From IMG/VR virus record IMGVR_UViG_3300020474_000004, positions 1-64,000 of that record: a stretch of 64,000 nucleotides of DNA; one strand, given 5' to 3'. The notes below the pieces were generated by a model. The model had not been told where the DNA came from. It did no database searches and was given only the letters and a program-made list of their open reading frames with translations. The translations under genes and the position numbers were made by a program. Position 1 is the stretch's first letter. Each line of letters begins with the position of its first letter. The DNA is from a virus. Below, piece by piece: positions 2,681-64,000 of the stretch.

Positions 2681-3703
2681 ATGTCGAATATTCAAATCTT
2701 AGAACAACCTGCTGAAGAGATGGTAAATCTAGACCAGACATTTGATCTTGTCTATATGGATCCACCATTCGGATTGCAGCGTGATTTTAAGATGCAAGAG
2801 TCTGATGGTTCGGAGAAAAGTTTCTCTGACCATTGGACTTCTTTTGATGCTTACACTGACTGGTATGCAGATATTATTAACAAAGCATGGTCTAAGTTGA
2901 ACAAAAATGGTTGGATGTACTGCCATAATAATTTCATCGGTAATGCTCTAGTAATGTCCAAGATTGATAAAAAGATTAGAGACGCATTTTATACTAACAT
3001 TTCATGGAAACGTAGTGGACCAAAGAATAATATCAAGAATGGTTGGGGTAACATTGTAGATTCAATTATTGTATTCAGAAAAGGTAGTCCGATGTTTGTC
3101 GTCGAATATACCTCACTTGATCCTGTTTATGCTGCAAATAGTTTTCAGAATAGAGATGACATCGGTCACTATGCTCTCGCAAAAGTAACAGGAGAAAAGA
3201 GCAGACCATGTGCTAAGTTTGAATTTACTGTTGAAACTAACGAATTGGATTATATGGGAGAGAAAATTAAAAAAACATACAATCCCGACTATGGGTTTCG
3301 TGTAACTAGGGAAAAATTGGAAGAACTGGACGCACAGGATAGATTGCACTACGGTACAAATAATATCTACAAAAAAATCTATTCTCATGAGTCCAAAGGT
3401 GTTCCCGTGCAAAATCTATGGGATGATGTATATTTTATCAGCAGAAGTGAGAAGAACAAACGTAAGTATCCTACACAAAAACCTCTTAAATTGTTAGAAC
3501 GTATCATAAAGTCATCATGTCCTGATGACGGATGGGTTCTAGATCCTTTCTGCGGATCAGGAACAACAGCAATCTCATCATATAACTTAGGCAGGAATTG
3601 TGTGACGATGGATGTTAATCCAGACTCTATTCGGATTGCACAAGAGACAATCGATGAACTGTCCACTAACACTTGCAATTCCTTGATGAATACGCTATCT
3701 TAG
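2681..3703 (+). CDS. Beta-class N6-adenine/N4-cytosine DNA methyltransferase
   Basis: N-terminal catalytic motif IV LVYMDPPF; C-terminal YPTQKP and SAM-binding motif I VLDPFCGSGTT. Confidence 0.92.
   Translation: MSNIQILEQPAEEMVNLDQTFDLVYMDPPFGLQRDFKMQESDGSEKSFSDHWTSFDAYTDWYADIINKAWSKLNKNGWMYCHNNFIGNALVMSKIDKKIRDAFYTNISWKRSGPKNNIKNGWGNIVDSIIVFRKGSPMFVVEYTSLDPVYAANSFQNRDDIGHYALAKVTGEKSRPCAKFEFTVETNELDYMGEKIKKTYNPDYGFRVTREKLEELDAQDRLHYGTNNIYKKIYSHESKGVPVQNLWDDVYFISRSEKNKRKYPTQKPLKLLERIIKSSCPDDGWVLDPFCGSGTTAISSYNLGRNCVTMDVNPDSIRIAQETIDELSTNTCNSLMNTLS
3644..3701 (+). promoter_or_regulatory. Early promoter repeat element
   Basis: GAGACAAT-N5-AACTGTCCAC, TTGCAA (3673-3678), 17 bp, TATCTT (3696-3701). 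Confidence 0.75.
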
Positions 3704-3707
3704 GAAT

Positions 3708-4616
3708 ATGAAAAACACACACCTCCAACATCCCGAAGATTCCATCCTGACGGGTGATCTTTCTGCACTTGATTGGTTTCTTGCTGATAGTGATTTATCA
3801 GTAAAGATTGATGGTGCTCCCGCTATTGTTTACGGTACAAACCCTGCTAATGGAAAATTCTTCGTCGGCACCAAAAGTGTCTTCAACAAAGTCAAAATCA
3901 AAATTAACCAAACGCATGAAGAAATTGAGCAAAATCACACTGGGGCAGTTGCTAAAATTCTGCATCATTCTCTTGATTGCCTCACTCCTACCACCGATGT
4001 TATACAATGTGATTTTATTGGGTTTGGTGGTGATGATACTTTCACACCTAATACGCTGACCTATGTGTTTGATGATATTATCTATCAGGATATTATCGTA
4101 GCACCTCATACAATCTACACAACCGACACAAATGATCTGCGTGATGCTGTTGCTCACCCGTTGGTAGATTACGACTTCACTGATACTGACCGCTGTAAGT
4201 ATGTGCGTCCTCGTGCATGGCAACTCGACGAAGATTTCGATCAGATCGTAGCTTTTGCCCGTCAAATGTCCACCATGTGTGATTTCATCGACGCGAAGCA
4301 ATCACGTCAGATTCAGCAACAACTTAACAGCATCATTCGTGCTGGGTTGGATATTGATGACATCACGCTAGAAGCACTGGCATTTGCGAATCAAATCGAT
4401 CTAAGTTTGCTACGTCTGTGGTCATTAGTCAAGTCAATCAAGGATGATATGCTGTTTTTGATGCGTAACAATGGACCCAAAGCGTTCATCGGTCGCAAGC
4501 AATGTGGTGGCGAAGGATATGTTCGCACCAACGAATATGGCATGTTTAAGTTAGTCAATCGCTCGTCATTCTCTCACGCAAACTTCAACAATACCCGGTT
4601 CTCCTGTGCCAGTTGA
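3708..4616 (+). CDS. ATP-dependent ligase/nucleotidyltransferase-fold protein (RNA-ligase-like), conserved in cyanophages
   Basis: Motif I SVKIDG, motif III-like QCDF, motif IV EGYV, motif V FKLV. Confidence 0.65.
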   Translation: MKNTHLQHPEDSILTGDLSALDWFLADSDLSVKIDGAPAIVYGTNPANGKFFVGTKSVFNKVKIKINQTHEEIEQNHTGAVAKILHHSLDCLTPTTDVIQCDFIGFGGDDTFTPNTLTYVFDDIIYQDIIVAPHTIYTTDTNDLRDAVAHPLVDYDFTDTDRCKYVRPRAWQLDEDFDQIVAFARQMSTMCDFIDAKQSRQIQQQLNSIIRAGLDIDDITLEALAFANQIDLSLLRLWSLVKSIKDDMLFLMRNNGPKAFIGRKQCGGEGYVRTNEYGMFKLVNRSSFSHANFNNTRFSCAS

Positions 4617-5650: not shown

Positions 5651-5894
5651 GGGCACTAATCCATCCCCCGTTTATGTTAGCCAAGGACGCGACAACTATA
5701 GTGTATCGGTCTATAGTTCGACCAAGTTTGATACTCAGGGAGTGATTGAGCATCACTACAAGACATTCAGAACAAAGTATCAAAGTTACTTTGCAGCAGA
5801 AGATGCTGGGTGGAATTATATTAACTCACGACAATCATGGCAAGCATGGAGAGGAACAATCAAAGCATACGAGAACGCAGCAGTGTGCCAGTGA
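5640..5894 (+). CDS. Hypothetical early protein (84 aa)
   Basis: ATG with GGAG upstream; stop lies inside the promoter dyad. Confidence 0.65.
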   Translation: MIFKGTNPSPVYVSQGRDNYSVSVYSSTKFDTQGVIEHHYKTFRTKYQSYFAAEDAGWNYINSRQSWQAWRGTIKAYENAAVCQ

Positions 5895-5942
5895 ACGAAC
5901 TGTCCACTACCCCTTGCGTTCTGTTCTGATCCGTGCCATTAT
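5885..5942 (+). promoter_or_regulatory. Early promoter repeat element
   Basis: GTGCCAGT-N5-AACTGTCCAC-TACCCC-TTGCGT (5914-5919), 17 bp, TGC-CATTAT (5937-5942). Confidence 0.8.
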
Positions 5943-5971
5943 AGAAGAGTCAAAGGAACGCTTCTCTCCCC

Positions 5972-6223
5972 ATGCAACTCACTTCTAAAGACGGCAACAT
6001 GGTTGTTGACTTCTACCCCGTCAAGTTTGCTGACGGAACTATTCACAACCGTCTCATCCTCAAAGTTGTAACTTTCGTCGGTGCAACTCAATCCAAGCGT
6101 TATATCAACAAGAAAGATATGGCGTATGAGATTGATTCTCGTGTTGAGGGTTATGGTTATCAAATCACCGATGATTCGATGATTCCTCAGCTTCTCAACT
6201 CTGCAATGTGTCTTGCTTGCTGA
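5972..6223 (+). CDS. Hypothetical early protein (83 aa)
   Basis: First ORF after the promoter. Confidence 0.7.
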   Translation: MQLTSKDGNMVVDFYPVKFADGTIHNRLILKVVTFVGATQSKRYINKKDMAYEIDSRVEGYGYQITDDSMIPQLLNSAMCLAC

Positions 6224-6225
6224 TT

Positions 6226-6426
6226 ATGTCTCTCATCAAAAACTACCTTCACGCTAACATGAACGACCTGCAAATGCTCACTGCTCGCGAACAACTTATG
6301 GAGGACATTGATTGCATTATCTCTGAGTTCTTCAATGATACTTGGGGTGATTATGATGAGGCAGAATGTAATCAACTGATCGAAACAGTTTGTGATGCTG
6401 TCTGCAAGAACTTTCCCACTAAGTAA
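6226..6426 (+). CDS. Acidic hypothetical early protein
   Basis: REQLMEDIDCII...CDAVCKNFP; start 6226 or 6259. Confidence 0.65.
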   Translation: MSLIKNYLHANMNDLQMLTAREQLMEDIDCIISEFFNDTWGDYDEAECNQLIETVCDAVCKNFPTK

Positions 6427-6653
6427 TGTCTTTCGTCTCCAACTTCACTGATTCTAACACCATGAACAACAACAAAATCATCGACCGCGATCAACTTCAA
6501 GATGCCATGATTCAGCAGATCTTGGATGACATGGACATCAAAACAATGATGGCAATTCTTTATGATAGCATGAGTGAGGATTATGATATGTATTCGGACG
6601 AAGAAATCATGGAAGAGGTGAAAGAATACTACCCACATTTGATGGAGGAGTGA
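6426..6653 (+). CDS. Acidic hypothetical early protein
   Basis: ILDDMDIKTMMAILYD...EVKEYYPHLMEE. Confidence 0.7.
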   Translation: MSFVSNFTDSNTMNNNKIIDRDQLQDAMIQQILDDMDIKTMMAILYDSMSEDYDMYSDEEIMEEVKEYYPHLMEE

Positions 6654-6709
6654 ACTTATAGGACCGTCACCGACCCATAAGTCACGCTAATCGGTCAATC
6701 CCTGAAACG

Positions 6710-6751
6710 GTAGCAACCGATACAGCAAAAAACCCAAATCTGTGCCATATT
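6710..6751 (+). promoter_or_regulatory. Putative class II NtcA-activated promoter
   Basis: GTA-gcaaccga-TAC (6710-6723), 22 bp, CATATT (6746-6751) with a TG extension; no TTG-type -35. Confidence 0.65.
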
Positions 6752-6757
6752 AGAATC

Positions 6758-6937
6758 ATGGAAAACAAAGCAACCTTCTCAACCGAAAACCTAACTGAAC
6801 TTCAGGACTTTATGTTCGATACTATGTGCTCCAACGATATGGCAGTTGATTGGTTCTGCGATCGTTTCGGAGTTAATGCAACTGACGAAGTGATTGATTT
6901 CGTCCTTGATGCACATGATGCTTTCTTCGGTAACTGA
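6758..6937 (+). CDS. Small acidic protein (59 aa, not in the ORF track); probable paralog of 8247..8462
   Basis: MENKATFSTENLTELQDFMFDTMCSNDMAVDWFCDRFGVNATDEVIDFVLDAHDAFFGN. Confidence 0.7.
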   Translation: MENKATFSTENLTELQDFMFDTMCSNDMAVDWFCDRFGVNATDEVIDFVLDAHDAFFGN

Positions 6938-6950
6938 ACCTTACTCTATT

Positions 6951-7112
6951 ATGAACATGAACATCTACAACGAAATCCTCAAAGTTTGGAACAACGAAAC
7001 ACCTGATGATTTTGCTATCTTCAGTGACTTCTATTACCAGATGTTCGGTGAGGATTTTAACATTCCCTACACCACTGATTCAAATACTTCTTCATTTTTT
7101 CCCTACGACTGA
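6951..7112 (+). CDS. Hypothetical early protein (53 aa)
   Basis: ATG 6951 avoids overlap with the upstream ORF. Confidence 0.55.
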   Translation: MNMNIYNEILKVWNNETPDDFAIFSDFYYQMFGEDFNIPYTTDSNTSSFFPYD

Positions 7113-7123
7113 TTAACAACAAC

Positions 7124-7324
7124 ATGACTGAATCTAAGTTCAATCTTTACGGCGAACACATCCGCCCTAATGGTCATCAACAGTACGACATTTTGAGTTA
7201 CATTGCTGAGACAAGAGAGGATGCTATTGCTACATGTAGGAAGAACAATCCTTACTTTAACATTATTACAATTCAGGTAGATGATACAGCACCTGAAGTT
7301 GTCAAACTGCAATCTCTTATCTGA
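7124..7324 (+). CDS. Hypothetical early protein (66 aa)
   Basis: Tightly packed ATG ORF. Confidence 0.65.
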   Translation: MTESKFNLYGEHIRPNGHQQYDILSYIAETREDAIATCRKNNPYFNIITIQVDDTAPEVVKLQSLI

Positions 7325-7334
7325 TTTTCTGATC

Positions 7335-7616
7335 ATGAACAACACACTCAAAGATCATCTGGAACTTGTCAACGAACTAATTGAAAAGCACGGTGAAGAT
7401 GCACATTGTGCCGCATGGGTTTTCACTGCTGAAAATTGCATTGTTTTTCATGAAGATACAGAGGAGTATCATTTTGTGGCAGAAGGTAATTCCGAGCTAG
7501 CAGAAAGAATCCTCAGCAATGTTTGTGACGATGATCACATCTTTCAGGAGATTCAGGCACTCGTAGATGAGGTTACAGAGGAGCAATATATGCTCTATCA
7601 ACAGGAGTTAGTATGA
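7335..7616 (+). CDS. Acidic hypothetical early protein
   Basis: LIEKHGEDAHCAAWVFT; ATG 7335. Confidence 0.7.
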   Translation: MNNTLKDHLELVNELIEKHGEDAHCAAWVFTAENCIVFHEDTEEYHFVAEGNSELAERILSNVCDDDHIFQEIQALVDEVTEEQYMLYQQELV

Positions 7617-7804
7617 ACACAACAACCGCAACTTACAAAATTGATGTGACACAAGAGTGTGGAAATGTTCTCACTTATATGAGAACGATGCCCACACGCC
7701 CAACAACACATAGAGGCATTAAATCACACAACACAAAACTAGAAAATTGGGCAAAGAATGTTTGCCATAACTGGAAAGAAATCAACGTCACTTTGCTTCC
7801 CTAA
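7613..7804 (+). CDS. Hypothetical early protein (63 aa)
   Basis: ATGA overlap, GGAG ribosome-binding site. Confidence 0.65.
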   Translation: MNTTTATYKIDVTQECGNVLTYMRTMPTRPTTHRGIKSHNTKLENWAKNVCHNWKEINVTLLP

Positions 7805-7805
7805 A

Positions 7806-8165
7806 ATGTTATTTGTTTCAGGTAAATCAAGGTTCTCCGATCTTACTTCGAGAGTTTACGAGTTTTTTACTGCGATATACGAGATTCGCAGCGACGTAGA
7901 AATTTACTCCTGCAATCTACGAGATGAGAACGCCCTTGGATTTACAGAGGTAAATGGTGATGAGCAATTTGTTCAGGTACATCATAGTCTGACATATGAG
8001 GAGCATGTGAAAACAATTCTCCACGAACTTGTCCATGTTGTTCAGAACGAGAATGGTATGATTGACGAGGTTGAGAGAGAATCACAAGCATATAATATGG
8101 AGGAGGTTCTTTACAAGAAGTGGTGTGCCAGTCAGAGAAGTGTCACAACCCCCCTTGTAATTTGA
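7806..8165 (+). CDS. Small HExxH zincin-like metallopeptidase-domain protein
   Basis: TILHELVHVVQ followed by ERESQAY (candidate third ligand Glu). Confidence 0.7.
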   Translation: MLFVSGKSRFSDLTSRVYEFFTAIYEIRSDVEIYSCNLRDENALGFTEVNGDEQFVQVHHSLTYEEHVKTILHELVHVVQNENGMIDEVERESQAYNMEEVLYKKWCASQRSVTTPLVI

Positions 8166-8183
8166 GGTCAGATCTGCCATATT
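8125..8183 (+). promoter_or_regulatory. Early promoter repeat element
   Basis: GTGCCAGT-N5-AAGTGTCACA, CCCTTGTAA (-35 at 8155), 17 bp, TGC-CATATT (8178-8183); downstream GAGGG/CCCTC stem. Confidence 0.8.
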
Positions 8184-8246
8184 AGATACATGGGAGGGAA
8201 GGACAGAAACCGACCCTCACTCCAAAATCTTCACTCTACTCTGACA

Positions 8247-8462
8247 ATGGCAACTCCAATCTTCACACTCTCTCCCGAAATGCAAGAATCCTGGGATTAT
8301 GTAATGGGACAAATGTTGTCCTTCGTTAATGACACAAATGCCGATGTAGATATGGCATATGATTTTGTATGTGAGCAACTGGGAATTGATTCCTTTGTTG
8401 ATAATGAAAAAGCATGGGATGATTTCTACATGTATTGGGAAGCAGCAGACAATCGTAACTAA
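8247..8462 (+). CDS. Small acidic hypothetical protein
   Basis: DMAYDFVCEQLGI motif; start 8247 or 8190. Confidence 0.7.
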   Translation: MATPIFTLSPEMQESWDYVMGQMLSFVNDTNADVDMAYDFVCEQLGIDSFVDNEKAWDDFYMYWEAADNRN

Positions 8463-8522
8463 ACCCAATACAACTTTGCTTGATTCTTAACACTTACTCA
8501 TTCACCTTATCTAACAACAATC

Positions 8523-8870
8523 ATGCGTAAAATCGAACGTCAAATGTGTGATGCAGTCCAGGGCAATCGCAACTGGAAAAATGCTAACACTGAAGTCAAA
8601 ATTGATCTGGAAACTAAAGTTTCTTCAGTCTATCTTTACGGTAAGTTGATTGCTACTGTTTCAGATGATGATATGGTTATCTATGATGGTGGTTGGCAAA
8701 CTAACACTACTAAGTCACGATTGAACGCTCTATGTAATGAGTTCTGTATTACTGGTGAGTGTGTATTTCAGAAAGATTTTGCATGGTATGTGAAAAAGTT
8801 TGTTGGATGTATCAATGGAAAAAATATCTTCAAGACTGAAGATTTTGACAACGGTTACATCTTTGCCTAA
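8523..8870 (+). CDS. Conserved phage hypothetical protein
   Basis: MRKIE...VYLYG-x-LIA...GGWQTNTTKSRLNAL family motif (recalled). Confidence 0.8.
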   Translation: MRKIERQMCDAVQGNRNWKNANTEVKIDLETKVSSVYLYGKLIATVSDDDMVIYDGGWQTNTTKSRLNALCNEFCITGECVFQKDFAWYVKKFVGCINGKNIFKTEDFDNGYIFA

Positions 8871-8923
8871 TGCTCAAAGTACTATCTAAACCCAGATCTT
8901 CCAAACAACATCTCATCATTCAC

Positions 8924-9082
8924 ATGAAATTCATTCTTCTTGCTATCATCGGTGTTCTTCTCTGGCAGTCAGATAGTGCTCGTTCTTTCACTGCTGATAC
9001 ACTATACAAAGCAGCAGAGATTGTTGAACCCGATGTGAGTAATCGTACAATCGGTGAAACCATTGATAGTTTTCTGAACTAA
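8924..9082 (+). CDS. Small membrane-anchored or secreted protein
   Basis: MKFILLAIIGVLLWQSDSARS hydrophobic N-terminus; alternative start 8870. Confidence 0.6.
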   Translation: MKFILLAIIGVLLWQSDSARSFTADTLYKAAEIVEPDVSNRTIGETIDSFLN

Positions 9083-9153
9083 TCTATCAGACCTTGGATG
9101 TCTCTAAACTCATCAATTTTCCCTTTCATTGTTGACACTTTCACTTCGTTATT

Positions 9154-9297
9154 ATGACCCGTTCAACTGCACTTGGTATGCTCAAGGTTGGCAACACCGG
9201 AGAAGAGATTCTTCAGATTCTCGATGTTATCGTTGATGAGATTGAGCAAGAAAATATCAATGATGTTGCTGAGTATTATGCTTCTATTAGTGCATGA
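9154..9297 (+). CDS. Small hypothetical protein (47 aa, not in the ORF track)
   Basis: MTRSTALGMLKVGNTGEEILQILDVIVDEIEQENINDVAEYYASISA. Confidence 0.6.
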   Translation: MTRSTALGMLKVGNTGEEILQILDVIVDEIEQENINDVAEYYASISA

Positions 9298-9319
9298 TCT
9301 GTAATCCTCGATAATACTC

Positions 9320-9345
9320 AAAGGGGTGCCAAAAACGCCCCTTTT
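9320..9345. terminator. Intrinsic terminator closing the early region, possibly bidirectional
   Basis: AAAGGGGTG-ccaaaaa-CGCCCCTTTT stem with A and T flanks. Confidence 0.65.
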
Positions 9346-9350
9346 GTGCT

Positions 9351-9484
9351 ATTATACATAAAGATTACCCTTTTTTTATATTAAAAATGGTAATTAAAAT
9401 GTATTTGTGTTTTATATCGTTTTTAACAATGTTGTGGAAAAAGGTATGAAATAGTGTGGATAAAGGTGTTAGTATTGTGGAAAA
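9351..9484. other. Putative replication origin: AT-rich tract plus three DnaA boxes
   Basis: 13 G+C in the 80 nt of 9351-9430; TGTGGAAAA 9433-9441, TGTGGATAA 9455-9463, TGTGGAAAA 9476-9484. Confidence 0.6.
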
Positions 9485-9526
9485 GTGTCTGATTTAATGT
9501 GCTCAGGGGTAGTGATCTAAGCGAGC

Positions 9527-9555
9527 AGTCTATCACACACTCGCAGAAATGTCAA
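9527..9555 (-). promoter_or_regulatory. Leftward sigma70 promoter with no downstream ORF
   Basis: Minus strand TTGACA (9555-9550), 17 bp, TGn-TAGACT (9532-9527). Confidence 0.65.
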
Positions 9556-9610
9556 GACCCTCCGTGAACTTTTTATGGGGACATGGTGATACAAAAATAT
9601 CAGTAGTCCT

Positions 9611-36453: not shown

Positions 36454-37296
36454 ATGGCAAAACCAGCAAGTAGATCAGAATTAATAGATTACTGTAAGAG
36501 GCAACTGGGAGCTCCTGTATTGGAGATCAACGTTGCCGATGAGCAGCTTGATGACTTGGTTGATGATGCCTTACAGGTATTCCAAGAACGTGATTATGAT
36601 GGAACGACAAATACATACTTGAAGTATAAGATCACTCAAGATGATATTGATAGGGGAAGAGGTAGAGGTGGATCCAATCCAATTGGAATTGTAACAACAA
36701 CAGCTACCTCAACGGTTGGTGTTTCTACTACATTTTCATTTGAAGAAAATAGTAATTATCTTCAAGTTCCTCCTGAAGTATTGGGAGTTACAAAGATATT
36801 CCATTTTAGTGGTGCTAATACCACAGCAAATAATATGTTTAGTATTAAATATCAATTATTCTTAAATGATATTTACTACTTCGGATCGACTGAAATACTC
36901 ACCTATGCAATGACAAAAAGATATCTTGAAGATATTGATTTTGCTTTGACTACACAAAAACAGATTAGATTTAATATTAGACAAGATAGACTTTATTTGG
37001 ATATAGACTGGGCTAGTGTTGATGTAGATGATTATCTTGTAATCGATTGCTATAGACTCATTGACCCTAATGATTTTCCGAGAGTATATAATGATGCTTT
37101 TTTAAAGCGTTATTTGACTGCACTTATTAAAAGGCAATGGGGTCAAAATTTAATTAAGTTTCAAGGAGTCAAACTACCAGGTGGAGTTGAGTTAAATGGT
37201 AGACAAATATATGATGACGCAGAAAGAGAATTGGATAAGATTAAAGAGGTAATGTCGAATACCTATGAACTACCACCTCTTGACATGATAGGATAA
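36454..37296 (+). CDS. gp13: Neck protein gp13
   Basis: LGAPVLEINV; KRQWGQNLIKFQGVKLPGGVELNG. Confidence 0.95.
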   Translation: MAKPASRSELIDYCKRQLGAPVLEINVADEQLDDLVDDALQVFQERDYDGTTNTYLKYKITQDDIDRGRGRGGSNPIGIVTTTATSTVGVSTTFSFEENSNYLQVPPEVLGVTKIFHFSGANTTANNMFSIKYQLFLNDIYYFGSTEILTYAMTKRYLEDIDFALTTQKQIRFNIRQDRLYLDIDWASVDVDDYLVIDCYRLIDPNDFPRVYNDAFLKRYLTALIKRQWGQNLIKFQGVKLPGGVELNGRQIYDDAERELDKIKEVMSNTYELPPLDMIG

Positions 37297-44522: not shown

Positions 44523-47500
44523 ATGGCAATTTCAGAAGCACAAAAGGTTGACTTTCTTTGGAAGAAACTTGGTTACGGAGTTTCCAAGACCGATACTAAT
44601 GCCAACAAGAAGGCAACTAATGAATCAATAGCAAGTCCTCTACTTCTAAGAGGAAATAATGTATGGTCTCAGGCAGACCTAATCCCTGGCACAATGCCAG
44701 CATCTTCTGCTGGTGTAGTTACTGTATATCCAACGACTGCACCAGATGAAACTACAGCAGATGCATCGGCATCATCTAATAGAACTTGGAAAACTGGATT
44801 AACTGATTGGATACCACCAGAGATTGGATCAACTTATCTTGTAAAGGTATATGTTCATACTGCTGGCGATGCTGCTAATGCTGCTGGTAGTGGAACTCAG
44901 GTATTTGGTGCTGGTTCTGGTAACAATGACGAATGGTTCTTTGACTATCAATCGGGCACTTTACACTTTATTGGAACAAATCTTCCAAACGGTGTAAATT
45001 TTTCTGGAAAGAGTGTTTACGTAAGTGGTGCAAGATATACCGGTATTAAAGGTGTATCTGTTCCTGGATCTACCGCGACATTTAGTGATGTTAATGCAAC
45101 TGGTATTGGTACATTCCAATCTGGTGGTAGATTAGATGACGTTCAGATTGGTAGAACTGCAGCTAATGAGATTGATACAACGGCAGGAAATCTTATCTTA
45201 GATTCTGCTGGTGGAACAGTTCAGATTACTGACAATGCATCTGTTACCGGTAATACAACACTTAGTGGAACACTAGATGTAGATGGGCAGACTGATTTAG
45301 ATGTATTAAACGTTGCTGAGACCGCCACATTTAGTGCTGCAATCGACGCAAATGGGTCTTTGGATGTCGATGGTCATACAGAACTTGATGACGTTAATAT
45401 CGCTGGTATAGCAACCGCTACGGCAGTTCATTTAGGTGCTGAGGGATCGGCACTTCGTCTTACCACTAATACAATTTCTGGTCCTGCGACTATTACGATT
45501 GACCCTGCTGGTGTCGGAGATAACACAGGAACACTCGTTGTTGCTGGTAATCTCCAAGTTGACGGAACACAAACTACCATCAACTCAACGACAGTCAATA
45601 TAGACGATAAAAACATTCAGGTTGCCACTGGTGCTGCTAATGACGCAGCTGCTGATGGTGCTGGTATTACGGTTGATTCTGGTGAGGGAGACAAGACGTT
45701 CCAGTTTGAAGCAACCGGTGATAACTGGGGTGCATCAGAGAATTTAAATCTTGCCTCTGGTAAAGCATATAAGATTAATAACACAAGCGTTCTTAACGCT
45801 ACAACTCTTGGTGGAGCAGTTGTAAACTCTTCACTTACAAGTGTTGGAACTCTTACTGGTCTTACGGTTTCAGGTAATGCATCTGTTGAGGGTAATGTAG
45901 ATCTTGGTAACGCTACCTCGGATACAATCACTGCAACTGGTAGATTTGACAGTGATTTAGTTCCATCTTCAGATGATGCAAGAGACTTAGGAACTTCTGC
46001 ATTAAAGTGGAAAGATATTTACATTGATGGTGTTGCATATGTTGATGATATTCACGCTGCAGATTGTGATATTAATGGTGGTAGCATCGATGGTGCTGCG
46101 ATTGGTGCTAACTCTGCCTCGACTGGTGCTTTTACAAGTGTCACTGCAAGTGGTAATGCTACGGTAACAGGCAATATAGATGTAGATGGACATACAAATC
46201 TCGATAACGTAAGTATTGCAGGTCTCACAACTCATGCTGCTGGAGTAACATTCTCTGGTGCAATTGATGCTAACTCTACTGCTACATTTGCTACAGCAGT
46301 TATAGAAGATCTCACCAACAATCGTGTAGTTATTGCTGGTTCTGGTGGAGAACTCGAAGATAGTGCAAATCTTACCTTTGATGGGTCAACTCTTAATGTT
46401 GTCGGACTTGCAGATCTTGATAATGTAAATGTATCGAGTGCTGCAACTGTATCAACACTAATTGATGTTCAGGGTTATATAAAGGGATATAAGTTCCTCT
46501 CTGCTCCTTACGGAAGCACAACAACAATTACTGTTACTGTTGCGAGTAAAGATGCAACTCACAGATACCAAGGAACTGGTAGTGGATCTGGATATTTACT
46601 AGACGGAGTTCAATCTCCAATTCTCACGTTAACTCCAGGTAGAACTTACAGATTCGATACATCACATACAAGTAACGGTGGTCACCCATTCCTCTTCTAT
46701 ATGGAAGCGGATAAGACTACTCAGTATACTACAAACGTTACCACAAACGGCACAGCAGGTAATGCTGGAGCATACACGCAGATTGTAGTCGGAGATGAAA
46801 CTCCATCGGTTCTCCACTATCAGTGCTCTGCTCATGGTTACATGGGTAACGCTGTTGTTACCAACTCTAATGCAATTAACTCAAACTATGCCGCAACTCT
46901 TCGCGGTGGATTGAGTGTTACTGGAACAACAACGCTTGGAACTCTCGCATTCTCTGCTGGTGGTTCTTCGGTAACTGGTGTTCTTGATGAAGATAATTTT
47001 GCAAGCAACAGCAATACTAAACTCGCGACTCAACAATCAATCAAGGCATATGTTGATTCTCAAATCACTGGATCTGATTTAGATTTCCAAGGCGATAGTG
47101 GTGGCGCACTTTCTATCGATCTTGATAGTGAAACTCTGACGATTGCTGGAACAGCAAATGAGATTGTAACATCTGGATCTGGAAATACATTGACTATTAG
47201 TCTTCCAACCACAGTTACCAATGATAATTTCCAAACCACTGCTGCTGGTAGAGTTACTACTGGTCTTATTGCGTCCGAAAACAATACAGATGGATTAACA
47301 TTAGCAACTGGTGGTGGCAAAAAGTGGTTAAAAGGAACTGCTAATGCACAAGTTGAACTTTTTCATAATAATAATAAAAAATTTGAAACTACTTCATCCG
47401 GTGTTATCGTTACTGGCATTTCATCTGCAACAAGTTTAAGATTAGGCACTAGCACATTAGTAAGTGGTGTTCTTGATGAGGACAACTTGGCAAGTGACAG

Positions 47501-62825: not shown

Positions 62826-64000
62826 ATGTCCAAATTATTTGGGTTCTCTATTGAGGATACTGAACCACTCTCACCATCAGTAGTCTCCCCCGTCCCTCAG
62901 TCAAATGAGGACGGGGTTGACCACTATATGAGTAGTGGTTTTTTTGGTTCCTACGTAGATATTGAAGGCGTATATAAAACTGAATTTGATCTCATCAAGA
63001 GATATCGTGAGATGGCGCTTCATCCAGAGTGTGATAGTGCGATTGAAGATATTGTAAACGAGGCAATCGTTTCTGATAGTAACGATACTCCTGTTGAGAT
63101 TGAACTCTCAAACCTTAATGCTAGCGATGGTATTAAGAAATCTATTAGACAAGAATTTAAGCACATCATAGATTTACTGGATTTTAATAAGAAAGCACAT
63201 GAAATCTATAGGAATTGGTACATTGATGGTAGACTTTATTATCATAAAATAATCGATCTAAAGAAACCTGAAGATGGTATTCAGGAACTTCGTTATATTG
63301 ACGCAATGAAAATGCGTTATGTAAGGAAGCAAAAGAAGAATGAAAAGAAAGAACTAAATCGTCTCAATCCATTGAAGCAAGATCCAATGGATTATGATTT
63401 CCCAGAATTGGAAGAGTTTTTTATCTATAATCCAAAAGCGGGAATGGGTGGCAACCCAATGCAATCAAGTGCGAGTCAAGGTATTAAAATGACTAAAGAC
63501 TCAGTAGCTTATTGTACATCTGGTTTAGTAGATAGAAATAAAGGATCAACGCTTTCATATCTTCATAAAGCAATCAAGTCTCTCAATCAACTGAGAATGA
63601 TTGAGGATAGTCTCGTCATTTATAGACTTTCAAGAGCACCAGAACGTCGTATTTTCTATATTGATGTTGGCAATCTTCCAAAAATTAAAGCAGAACAGTA
63701 TCTGCGTGACGTTATGATGAGATATCGTAACAAGTTAGTATACGATGCGTCCACAGGAGAGATTCGTGATGACAAAAAGTACATGGCTATGCTTGAGGAC
63801 TTCTGGTTGCCCAGACGTGAAGGAGGCAGAGGAACTGAAATTTCTACTCTTCCTGGCGGTCAAAACCTGGGAGAAATCACTGACATTGAGTATTTTAAGA
63901 AGAAACTTTACAGGTCCCTTAATGTTCCGCCGTCACGTATGGACGGAGAAGGTGGATTTAATCTGGGTAGATCATCTGAAATACTTAGGGATGAACTGAA
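62826..64000 (+). CDS. gp20: Portal vertex protein gp20 (partial; runs off the window, absent from the ORF track)
   Basis: MSKLFGFSI...YREMALHPECDSAIEDIVNE...WYIDGR...RAPERRIFYIDVGNLPK...EDFWLPRREGGRGTEI. Confidence 0.96.
   Translation, partial: MSKLFGFSIEDTEPLSPSVVSPVPQSNEDGVDHYMSSGFFGSYVDIEGVYKTEFDLIKRYREMALHPECDSAIEDIVNEAIVSDSNDTPVEIELSNLNASDGIKKSIRQEFKHIIDLLDFNKKAHEIYRNWYIDGRLYYHKIIDLKKPEDGIQELRYIDAMKMRYVRKQKKNEKKELNRLNPLKQDPMDYDFPELEEFFIYNPKAGMGGNPMQSSASQGIKMTKDSVAYCTSGLVDRNKGSTLSYLHKAIKSLNQLRMIEDSLVIYRLSRAPERRIFYIDVGNLPKIKAEQYLRDVMMRYRNKLVYDASTGEIRDDKKYMAMLEDFWLPRREGGRGTEISTLPGGQNLGEITDIEYFKKKLYRSLNVPPSRMDGEGGFNLGRSSEILRDEL

Follow-up and report, generated by a model that had tools for sequence, protein, structure and literature searches.

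Activation of class II promoters by the cyanobacterial regulator NtcA depends on 2-oxoglutarate, together with PipX. These promoters, those of glnA and urtA among them, carry a GTA-N8-TAC box with an inner C and G about 22 nt from the -10, and have no -35. The box is centred at -41.5 (PMC11850224; PMC3898017), and NtcA itself is described as universal in cyanobacteria (PMC3898017). The work on the NtcA–DNA structure presents a 'perfect', and expectedly high-affinity, box, TGTATC-AGCT-GATACA, derived from the S. elongatus glnA promoter; base reading falls to R186 for the invariant G:C (7 bp from the dyad axis), to V187 and T190 for the T (6 bp) and to R191 for a G (3 bp), which corresponds to the inner C/G (PMC11850224). 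Sites of this type have also been predicted in all 16 T4-like cyanophages of one study, at 1–16 per genome (mean 8.9), with the proposal that the phages exploit the nitrogen-stress response of the host (Sullivan et al., 2010; PMC3037559), and the same approach has been applied to viral focA and nirA (Gazitua et al., 2020; PMC8115048). The initial annotation of the DNA studied here, made from the letters alone, had mentioned such predictions, and the first of these reports bears it out; the kind of site is therefore already known. The literature searched yielded no case in which an NtcA site of a cyanophage had been put to experiment. Here we describe an NtcA-type half-promoter in the window, by which we mean the whole 64,000-nucleotide stretch analysed, the first 64 kb of an 80,920-base IMG/VR virus record (IMGVR_UViG_3300020474_000004, rated 38% complete). 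It lies within 6654–6757 and heads a cassette of six small genes that begins at 6758.

Like the predicted cyanomyovirus NtcA promoters, the site is an intergenic GTA-N8-TAC to which the idea of a host nitrogen-stress response can be applied. In the text available of the two papers, those sites are per-genome model hits with no analysis of conservation or spacing (PMC3037559; PMC8115048), whereas the module reported here is one half-promoter conserved in sequence across genera, with a fixed spacing and an exchange of the sigma-70 half. What is new is a traceable, sequence-conserved NtcA-type half-promoter of fixed geometry in place of the sigma-70 half of an ordinary early cassette, and the presence of such a half-promoter in a cultured phage–host pair, S-T4 and WH7803. 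By DNA match the contig is of the T4-like cyanomyovirus type, closest to phages of marine Synechococcus; the top matches are phage Bellamy (about 81–83% identity over parts), S-SM2 and SynMITS9220M01, which makes Synechococcus phage Bellamy the nearest named relative on this measure. The leftmost 9 kb of the window consists of small plus-strand genes arranged as a series of cassettes. We consider it probable, though well short of certain, that the promoter of the 6758 cassette has exchanged its -35 half for the upstream half of a host NtcA class II promoter.

Architecture of the promoter at 6654–6757

Five sister early promoter elements were read in the window, at 285, 3644, 4606, 5885 and 8125, and all five have a TTG -35. 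Those at 3644, 4606, 5885 and 8125 share a layout of an arm (GTCCAC or GTCACA), the TTG -35, 17 nt and the -10, and at 4606, 5885 and 8125 the arm is preceded by GTGCCAGT; the copy at 285 is degenerate. This standard early element resembles the mobile promoter/stem-loop cassettes of T4-type phages, termed PeSL, which Arbiol and colleagues are said to have described in 2010. It is like the 6758 promoter in that both have a TGn directly joined to a -10 with A2 and T6, followed by an ATG after 6 nt or by the leader AGAAGAGTCAAAG, and in that both head a cassette of small genes. The difference is upstream, where the 6758 promoter has an NtcA-type block and not the GTGCCAGT/GTCCAC dyad with its TTG -35.

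That block contains GTAGCAACCGATAC at 6710–6723, with GTA at 6710–6712, N8 (gcaaccga) at 6713–6720 and TAC at 6721–6723, followed by A at 6724. Written as GTAgC-aacc-GaTAC, a form to which no strand is assigned, the box has the inner C5 and G10. On the plus strand a 22 nt spacer (6724–6745) leads to the -10, and this overlaps an extended -10, TG-c-CATATT (6743–6751), with TG at 6743–6744 and CATATT at 6746–6751. Compared with TAN3T, CATATT keeps A2 and T6 and has C as its first base. The initial annotation had placed a box at 6710–6724, 22 bp before the -10, and on re-reading the sequence all of its coordinates agree. The hexamers 16–18 nt before CATATT (AGCAAA, CAGCAA and ACAGCA) match TTGACA at no more than two of six positions, and no TTG -35 stands 17 nt before the -10 (6722–6729). 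The GTGCCAGT...GTCCAC dyad is absent from 6654–6745, and a consensus promoter scan of 5800–9600 called no sigma-70 promoter at this site. The 6758 cassette retains the -10 half of the family without the family's upstream half. This is also what had first been noticed, namely that TGC-CATATT is kept while the TTG -35 and the GTGCCAGT dyad are missing, and the further remark that three sister promoters have a C-initial -10 is correct (CATACT, CATTAT and CATATT).

An ATG follows the -10 after 6 nt (TGcCATATT-agaatc-ATG), in the same layout as at 8175–8192. This ATG, at 6758, is probably the true start of the first gene; of the 41 loci matched by tblastn, 15 align from residue 1 onward, and its PHROG match begins at residue 6. 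With the -10 hexamer at -12 to -7, position +1 falls on 6758, the A of the ATG, and the centre of the box falls at -41.5. The predicted transcription start, at or next to this A, would give a leaderless or near-leaderless mRNA. The phage site differs from cyanobacterial NtcA class II promoters in this respect, and also in its C-initial -10, in the presence of a TGn and in heading small genes of unknown function.

The same placement of the ATG was seen elsewhere. It stands exactly 6 nt past the -10 hexamer at 3696–3710, 6746–6760 and 8178–8192 (TATCTTaggaatATG, CATATTagaatcATG and CATATTagatacATG, respectively) and, in the form TATAATaggcacATG, in the cassettes of many loci among the relatives of the first gene. 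On sequence grounds it predicts leaderless mRNAs for such early cassettes. In the papers examined, leaderless mRNA in cyanophages is mentioned in reference lists only.

One explanation for the box is a chance match to a motif that is short and common and was found after the fact. GTA-N8-TAC occurs 21 times in the 64 kb, nearly always within genes, against 13.0 ± 3.4 in 100 shuffles, two of which reach 21, so that the bare match is weak evidence. TGCCATATT has 25 matches at one mismatch or fewer against 21.7 ± 4.6 expected, and is not over-represented. The position of the box is another matter. The probability of a box at one fixed offset from a given -10 is 3.3e-4. Allowing for six promoters and three offsets brings it to 0.006; the value for GTAnC-N4-GnTAC, the extended form, is 2e-4. 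That form is found once in the 80.9-kb record, at 6710. Also against chance, S-T4 and other contigs share the box and its spacing, with spacers and downstream genes that differ. The divergence of the spacers contradicts the idea that all versions are a single identical-by-descent segment of recent origin. We regard a chance match as very unlikely.

Conservation of the module and exchange of promoter halves

Scanning IMG/VR with the pattern GGTANCAACCGATACAGC returned 25 stretches. Twelve are in a promoter context, on 11 contigs of which one is the S-T4 genome; ten belong to a single coding-sequence family in other viruses and three are otherwise coding. A short blastn search with 6640–6760 also matched S-T4, across both box and -10. 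In S-T4 (genus Tamkungvirus, host WH7803), read independently in the phage collection, 22 nt separate GGTATCAACCGATACA from CATGCT, and an unrelated gene of 77 aa has its ATG 6 nt further on; the module follows a homologue of the DUF7326 gene that lies upstream of it in the window. A second copy in the S-T4 record (MH412654) is likely a duplicate of the same locus (L172 1–2944 and L197 171800–173800; L numbers denote loci of this analysis). Open reading frames (ORFs) of matching sizes recur, in unchanged order, some 9.5 kb from either end of that record, and it appears that terminal redundancy was left in the assembly, such that features there are counted twice.

Nine versions of the module were aligned with MAFFT (alignment A1), without gaps. 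The core, AACGGTAgCAACCGATACAGCA (6706–6727, plus strand; A1 columns 27–48), is invariant except at 6713 and 6721. It can be written AACGGTA.CAACCGA.ACAGCA, the first dot being 6713, G in the window lineage and T elsewhere, and the second 6721, T in all versions apart from L200, where it is G. Outside the core, the only columns without variation are T20, that of the T at 6741, and those of A 6747 (A68) and T 6751 (T72) in the -10. Positions 2 and 6, to which these last two correspond, are the bases that matter most for a -10. The distance from box to -10 is 22 nt in all nine versions, across three unrelated types of spacer: an A-rich type with (a)atctgtgc (the window, L171, S-T4, L176 and the L181 group), a G-rich type (L178 and L179) and a GC-rich type (L189). 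NANNNT has a chance of 0.098 of falling at one fixed offset, and of about 1e-3 of doing so with three independent spacer types. The first genes downstream differ among the versions, and the downstream promoter halves are of the ordinary family. This conservation of block, spacing and -10 bases across unrelated spacers argues for a functional upstream element that is held at a fixed distance from the -10 and moves as a unit.

The -10s themselves vary in quality. L178 and L179 have TATCTT, which fits TAN3T, while those of S-T4 (CATGCT), L176 (AAGTAT) and L181 (AAGCCT) are poor. A TGn directly precedes the -10 in the window, S-T4, L176 and L181; L178, L179 and L189 have neither TGn nor -35. The lack of both in the latter three and the poor -10s of S-T4, L176 and L181 speak for the need of an activator. 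Judged from these comparisons, the half-promoter is probably functional.

The history of the half-promoter can be followed among relatives of the first gene. Such a relative is encoded at 41 IMG/VR loci found by tblastn, and the 37 with at least 110 nt upstream were examined. GTA-N8-TAC occurs within 150 nt upstream in two of these (L011 and L012), both with 97% protein identity to the window, and truncated locus L010 has the right half of the same box. TTGnnn-N3-5-G[GT]CACA is found upstream in 17 of the 37. The homologous gene of Bellamy has TTGTAA, 17 nt, CATTAT, 6 nt and ATG, and no box. On this comparison a sigma-70-type -35 takes the place of the box in Bellamy and in most of the homologous cassettes. 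From about 10 nt before the -10 onward (atctgtgcca...), box-type and -35-type loci share their sequence. With the -10 half shared and the upstream half differing, we conclude that the lineage of the window exchanged its upstream promoter half.

A related observation concerns the leader AGAAGAGTCAAAG past the -10, which is common to the sigma-70-type promoter at 5885 in the window (5930–5950) and to the NtcA-type loci L179 and L200 (A1 columns 67–86). One downstream half has in these cases been paired with either upstream half. It is possible, and we offer the idea tentatively, that the early cassettes have two interchangeable upstream halves, one a constitutive sigma-70 half made up of stem-loop and -35, and the other a portable NtcA operator of 22–26 nt with its centre held at -41.5 from a leaderless start, which recombine at the shared -10 region, so that one short recombination would switch a gene block between constant expression and expression under nitrogen starvation of the host. 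The window and Bellamy, and likewise L179 and the 5885 promoter of the window, would then be natural examples of the two promoter states.

A host source for the module did not emerge from a search of species-representative genomes, in which the 18-mer was present in 28 contigs, none of them marine picocyanobacterial. The sole cyanobacterial match, in Aerosakkonema, is inside a coding frame.

Candidate regulators of the module

The common form of the module is a perfect palindrome, GTATC-AACC-GATAC, from which the form in the window departs by one mismatch (GTAGC). Its GTATC and GATAC arms are those of the perfect box derived from S. elongatus glnA. In published predictions for WH7803, the NtcA promoters of this host have mostly N22 (range N21–N24), with boxes such as GTATCAACGACTAC and with -10s that often lack the first T (TGN3T, CAN3T and AAN3T). 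As a calibration, the pattern GTATC-N4-GATAC-N22-TAN3T was searched in 301 genomes drawn evenly from the cyanobacterial phylum, where it matched 24 times, spread over 23 genomes; the backwards control matched 14 times. Long open frames contain at least six of the 24. By the rule applied, four lack an ORF downstream, three more were set aside, and the 17 ORFs sent to Pfam all belong to matches of the pattern itself, not of the control. Three of the 17 are glutamine synthetase (L235, L240 and L242), and two are Peripla_BP_5 proteins of 437–439 aa, which we take to be UrtA-like proteins of urea transport. The others comprise a Peptidase_C26, an OprB porin, two APH kinases, a glycosyltransferase, a wHTH protein and six without a family. 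In its arms and N22 spacing, a pattern that in cyanobacteria stands ahead of glnA and urtA-like genes, the module has the architecture of the strongest NtcA-activated promoters.

Our working hypothesis is that the early promoter in 6654–6757 would be read by the host RNA polymerase, its -35 half having been swapped for a portable, conserved NtcA-type operator. A host NtcA dimer activated by 2-oxoglutarate would bind GTAGC-AACC-GATAC and, from about -41.5, would recruit polymerase to TGcCATATT, standing in for the -35 contact. Transcription of the six-gene cassette (6758–8165) would then be raised when nitrogen in the host is short relative to carbon. We infer NtcA as the binder, the position of the start site, activation beyond occupancy and dependence on nitrogen status.

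The block may instead be the operator of another dimeric protein, either a different CRP/FNR regulator of the host or a phage activator that compensates for the missing -35 in the manner of MotA in T4, with the GTA-N8-TAC pattern incidental to it. Such a protein would account for conservation throughout the 22–26 nt block, where neither the central AACC nor the flanks AAACG and AGCA are demanded by the NtcA consensus, for the recurrence of an identical 16-mer in phage S-H9-2 in a different geometry, and for the lack of general enrichment of NtcA-type boxes in these phage genomes. It would leave as coincidence that GTATC/GATAC arms around a 4-nt centre make a high-affinity NtcA box whose inner C/G are the R191 contacts, that the 22-nt spacing is the canonical one of host NtcA promoters, and that the same pattern stands ahead of glnA and urtA-like genes in cyanobacteria. 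T4-like cyanophages, moreover, are not known to carry motA or asiA. We think this alternative quite unlikely. Compared by eye with consensus sequences, the block fitted neither a LexA box, nor the HLR1 of RpaB, nor a Pho box.

Several of the observations made here weigh against NtcA as the regulator. In A1, conservation is no lower in the N8 and in the flanks than in GTA and TAC themselves. Recent spread of one segment may thus be part of the explanation, and the conservation does not separate contacts with NtcA from any other constraint. Freeing one or the other part of the pattern in constraint scans yielded two extra matches each time: L198 and L199 with N8 free, which is about the chance level for 18 fixed bases, and with GTA/TAC free L200, a true relative, and L201, a chance match, in what is a small sample. 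The natural variant L200 has GAC in place of TAC. The 16-mer of S-H9-2 (TGTATCAACCGATACA; MW147367, L196 603–618) stands just past speD, the gene for S-adenosylmethionine decarboxylase, in the gap that follows it. A TATAAT with a TTGTCA -35 (N17) to itself lies 25 nt further on and is followed by a small gene, which is not a class II geometry. Enrichment of GTAnC-N4-GnTAC is absent, the counts per strand against controls being 1 versus 2 in the record, 5 versus 5 in S-T4 and 1 versus 2 in Bellamy. In 326 kb of cyanophage loci there is no peak at 22 nt before strong extended -10s, the one case being that at 6710. Family searches gave no nitrogen-related annotation for any of the six downstream genes. 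The source phage is uncultured, and marine Synechococcus is the host of its nearest phages only. The window promoter also keeps a TGn extended -10, which with a -10 of fair quality may allow basal activity; a search for terminator-like sites on the plus strand of 5800–9600 found none; and contig X19 from an RNA library, about 96% alike, spans 6726–7009 and hence sequence upstream of the predicted start, which may reflect read-through or DNA. The RNA-library data consist of assembled contigs only, from relatives 88–96% alike, in which start sites and expression levels are not readable.

The TGn, the lack of terminator-like sites in 5800–9600 and contig X19 would fit an arrangement in which TGcCATATT acts as an activator-independent early promoter, the box is of minor importance and the cassette is expressed constitutively, in part by read-through. 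A TGn can replace a -35, and many picocyanobacterial promoters have no recognizable -35. The TGn stands directly before the -10 not only in the window but also in S-T4, L176 and L181, and 6726–6757 is covered by RNA-library sequence. The box nevertheless stays at exactly 22 nt in the versions without TGn or -35 (L178, L179 and L189), the -10s of several versions are very weak, and a box of no function would leave its strict conservation and spacing across unrelated spacers unexplained. For these reasons we judge activator independence unlikely; the reading that we favour remains the NtcA class II one. Since no terminator-like site was found in 5800–9600, read-through from the 5885 promoter is likely, and read-through from upstream promoters may express the six genes regardless of NtcA. 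With the next ordinary promoter at 8125, NtcA would add to the expression of the cassette and not gate it.

The module makes a clean test case, being short, conserved and of canonical geometry, and present in S-T4, a phage in culture on WH7803, a host in which the NtcA system has been studied; sister cassettes with the ordinary promoter are a built-in control. If the proposed reading is true, the early programme of abundant cyanophages would in part be tuned to ocean nitrogen status, and promoter halves would be exchangeable parts in phage genome evolution. If NtcA is not the binder, the conserved block would point to an unknown activator of early or middle transcription in cyanophages.

Some further matches to NtcA-type patterns were observed. 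A second site in the same record (75516–75558; L009 about 1501–1543) reads AATGTAACAAGAACTACATT, 23 nt and TATAAT, with a leader of about 70 nt and then a small ORF downstream. On the reverse strand, GTA-N8-TAC-N20-24-TAN3T gave seven matches against one in the control, mostly inside structural genes (36749–36791, 46156–46195 and 63478–63517 of the window and 72517–74431 of the record); these may be noise of codon composition or antisense promoters. A spacing scan of IMG/VR with CTAATATGNCA-N10-40-GTA-N8-TAC gave, among the matches listed, mostly coding sequence of unrelated viruses, and the gap of 19 found in the window occurred once. X16, a loose-end consensus from one RNA-library contig, represents a relative with the box GTATCCGTTGATAC, in which the GTATC and GATAC arms are kept and the centre is CGTT. 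In this relative a joint attaches the promoter, along with 18 nt from the start of the first gene (6719–6775), directly to a homologue of the gene at 8247, skipping 1,471 nt. We take this joint and the change of centre as a hint.

The six-gene cassette and neighbouring features

All six genes of the cassette are on the plus strand. Gene 1 (6758–6937, 59 aa) belongs to phrog_10297, gene 4 (7335–7616, 93 aa) to phrog_1255 and gene 5 (7613–7804, 63 aa) to phrog_11592, all of unknown function, and family searches found no family for gene 2 (6951–7112, 53 aa) or gene 3 (7124–7324, 66 aa). The product of gene 6 (7806–8165, 119 aa) contains an HELVH motif and has a weak Peptidase_M78/IrrE-like match (PF06114; 22.3 bits, cut-off 22; E 1.2e-4). 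The next standard early promoter, at 8125–8183 on the plus strand, with GTGCCAGT...GTCACA, TTGTAA, 17 nt and CATATT, marks where the cassette ends.

Upstream, a predicted plus-strand hairpin, GTGA-CTTAT...ATAAG-TCAC (6650–6685), begins at the stop codon of the DUF7326 gene. The initial annotation had described an NtcA-type class II arrangement with, in addition, an imperfect ATAAG-N5-CTAAT dyad at 6677–6691 as a possible site for a second factor. The first part holds in that the box replaces the -35 half and its arms and spacing are conserved; as to the second, the sequence is present, and its reading as a factor site is unsupported, since ATAAG (6677–6681) is the 3' arm of the hairpin, where it pairs with CTTAT (6656–6660) in the fold, and the other module versions lack the dyad. 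L171 retains the outer CTTAT/ATAAG stem with a different inner stem, and the remaining versions have a different hairpin (S-T4 and L181) or none (L178, L179 and L189). By this comparison the hairpin is not part of the conserved module. It has no T-run, and may be a boundary element of the cassette rather than a terminator. Folding of the whole intergenic RNA gave z = -1.54, which is not significant, and no Rfam family reached its gathering score anywhere in the window, including any riboswitch at this promoter.

Two of the sister promoters differ in what follows the -10. Past the promoter at 285–342, the ATG at 349 opens a frame of six codons only, and the long ORF has its putative start at a GTG, 381 (349–380 intervening). 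At 8190, right past the -10, stands the motif ATGGGAGGGAA, which is also found, as ATGGGGGAAA, in S-T4 (L172 2071–2110) and Bellamy (L001 2909–2960). In these two phages the motif opens a short frame only, ahead of a Gp96-like gene. The ORF from 8190 in the window matches its PHROG from residue 20 onward, the Met at 8247, and the 'start' at 8190 may instead be a leader with a GGAGG ribosome site (8190–8249).

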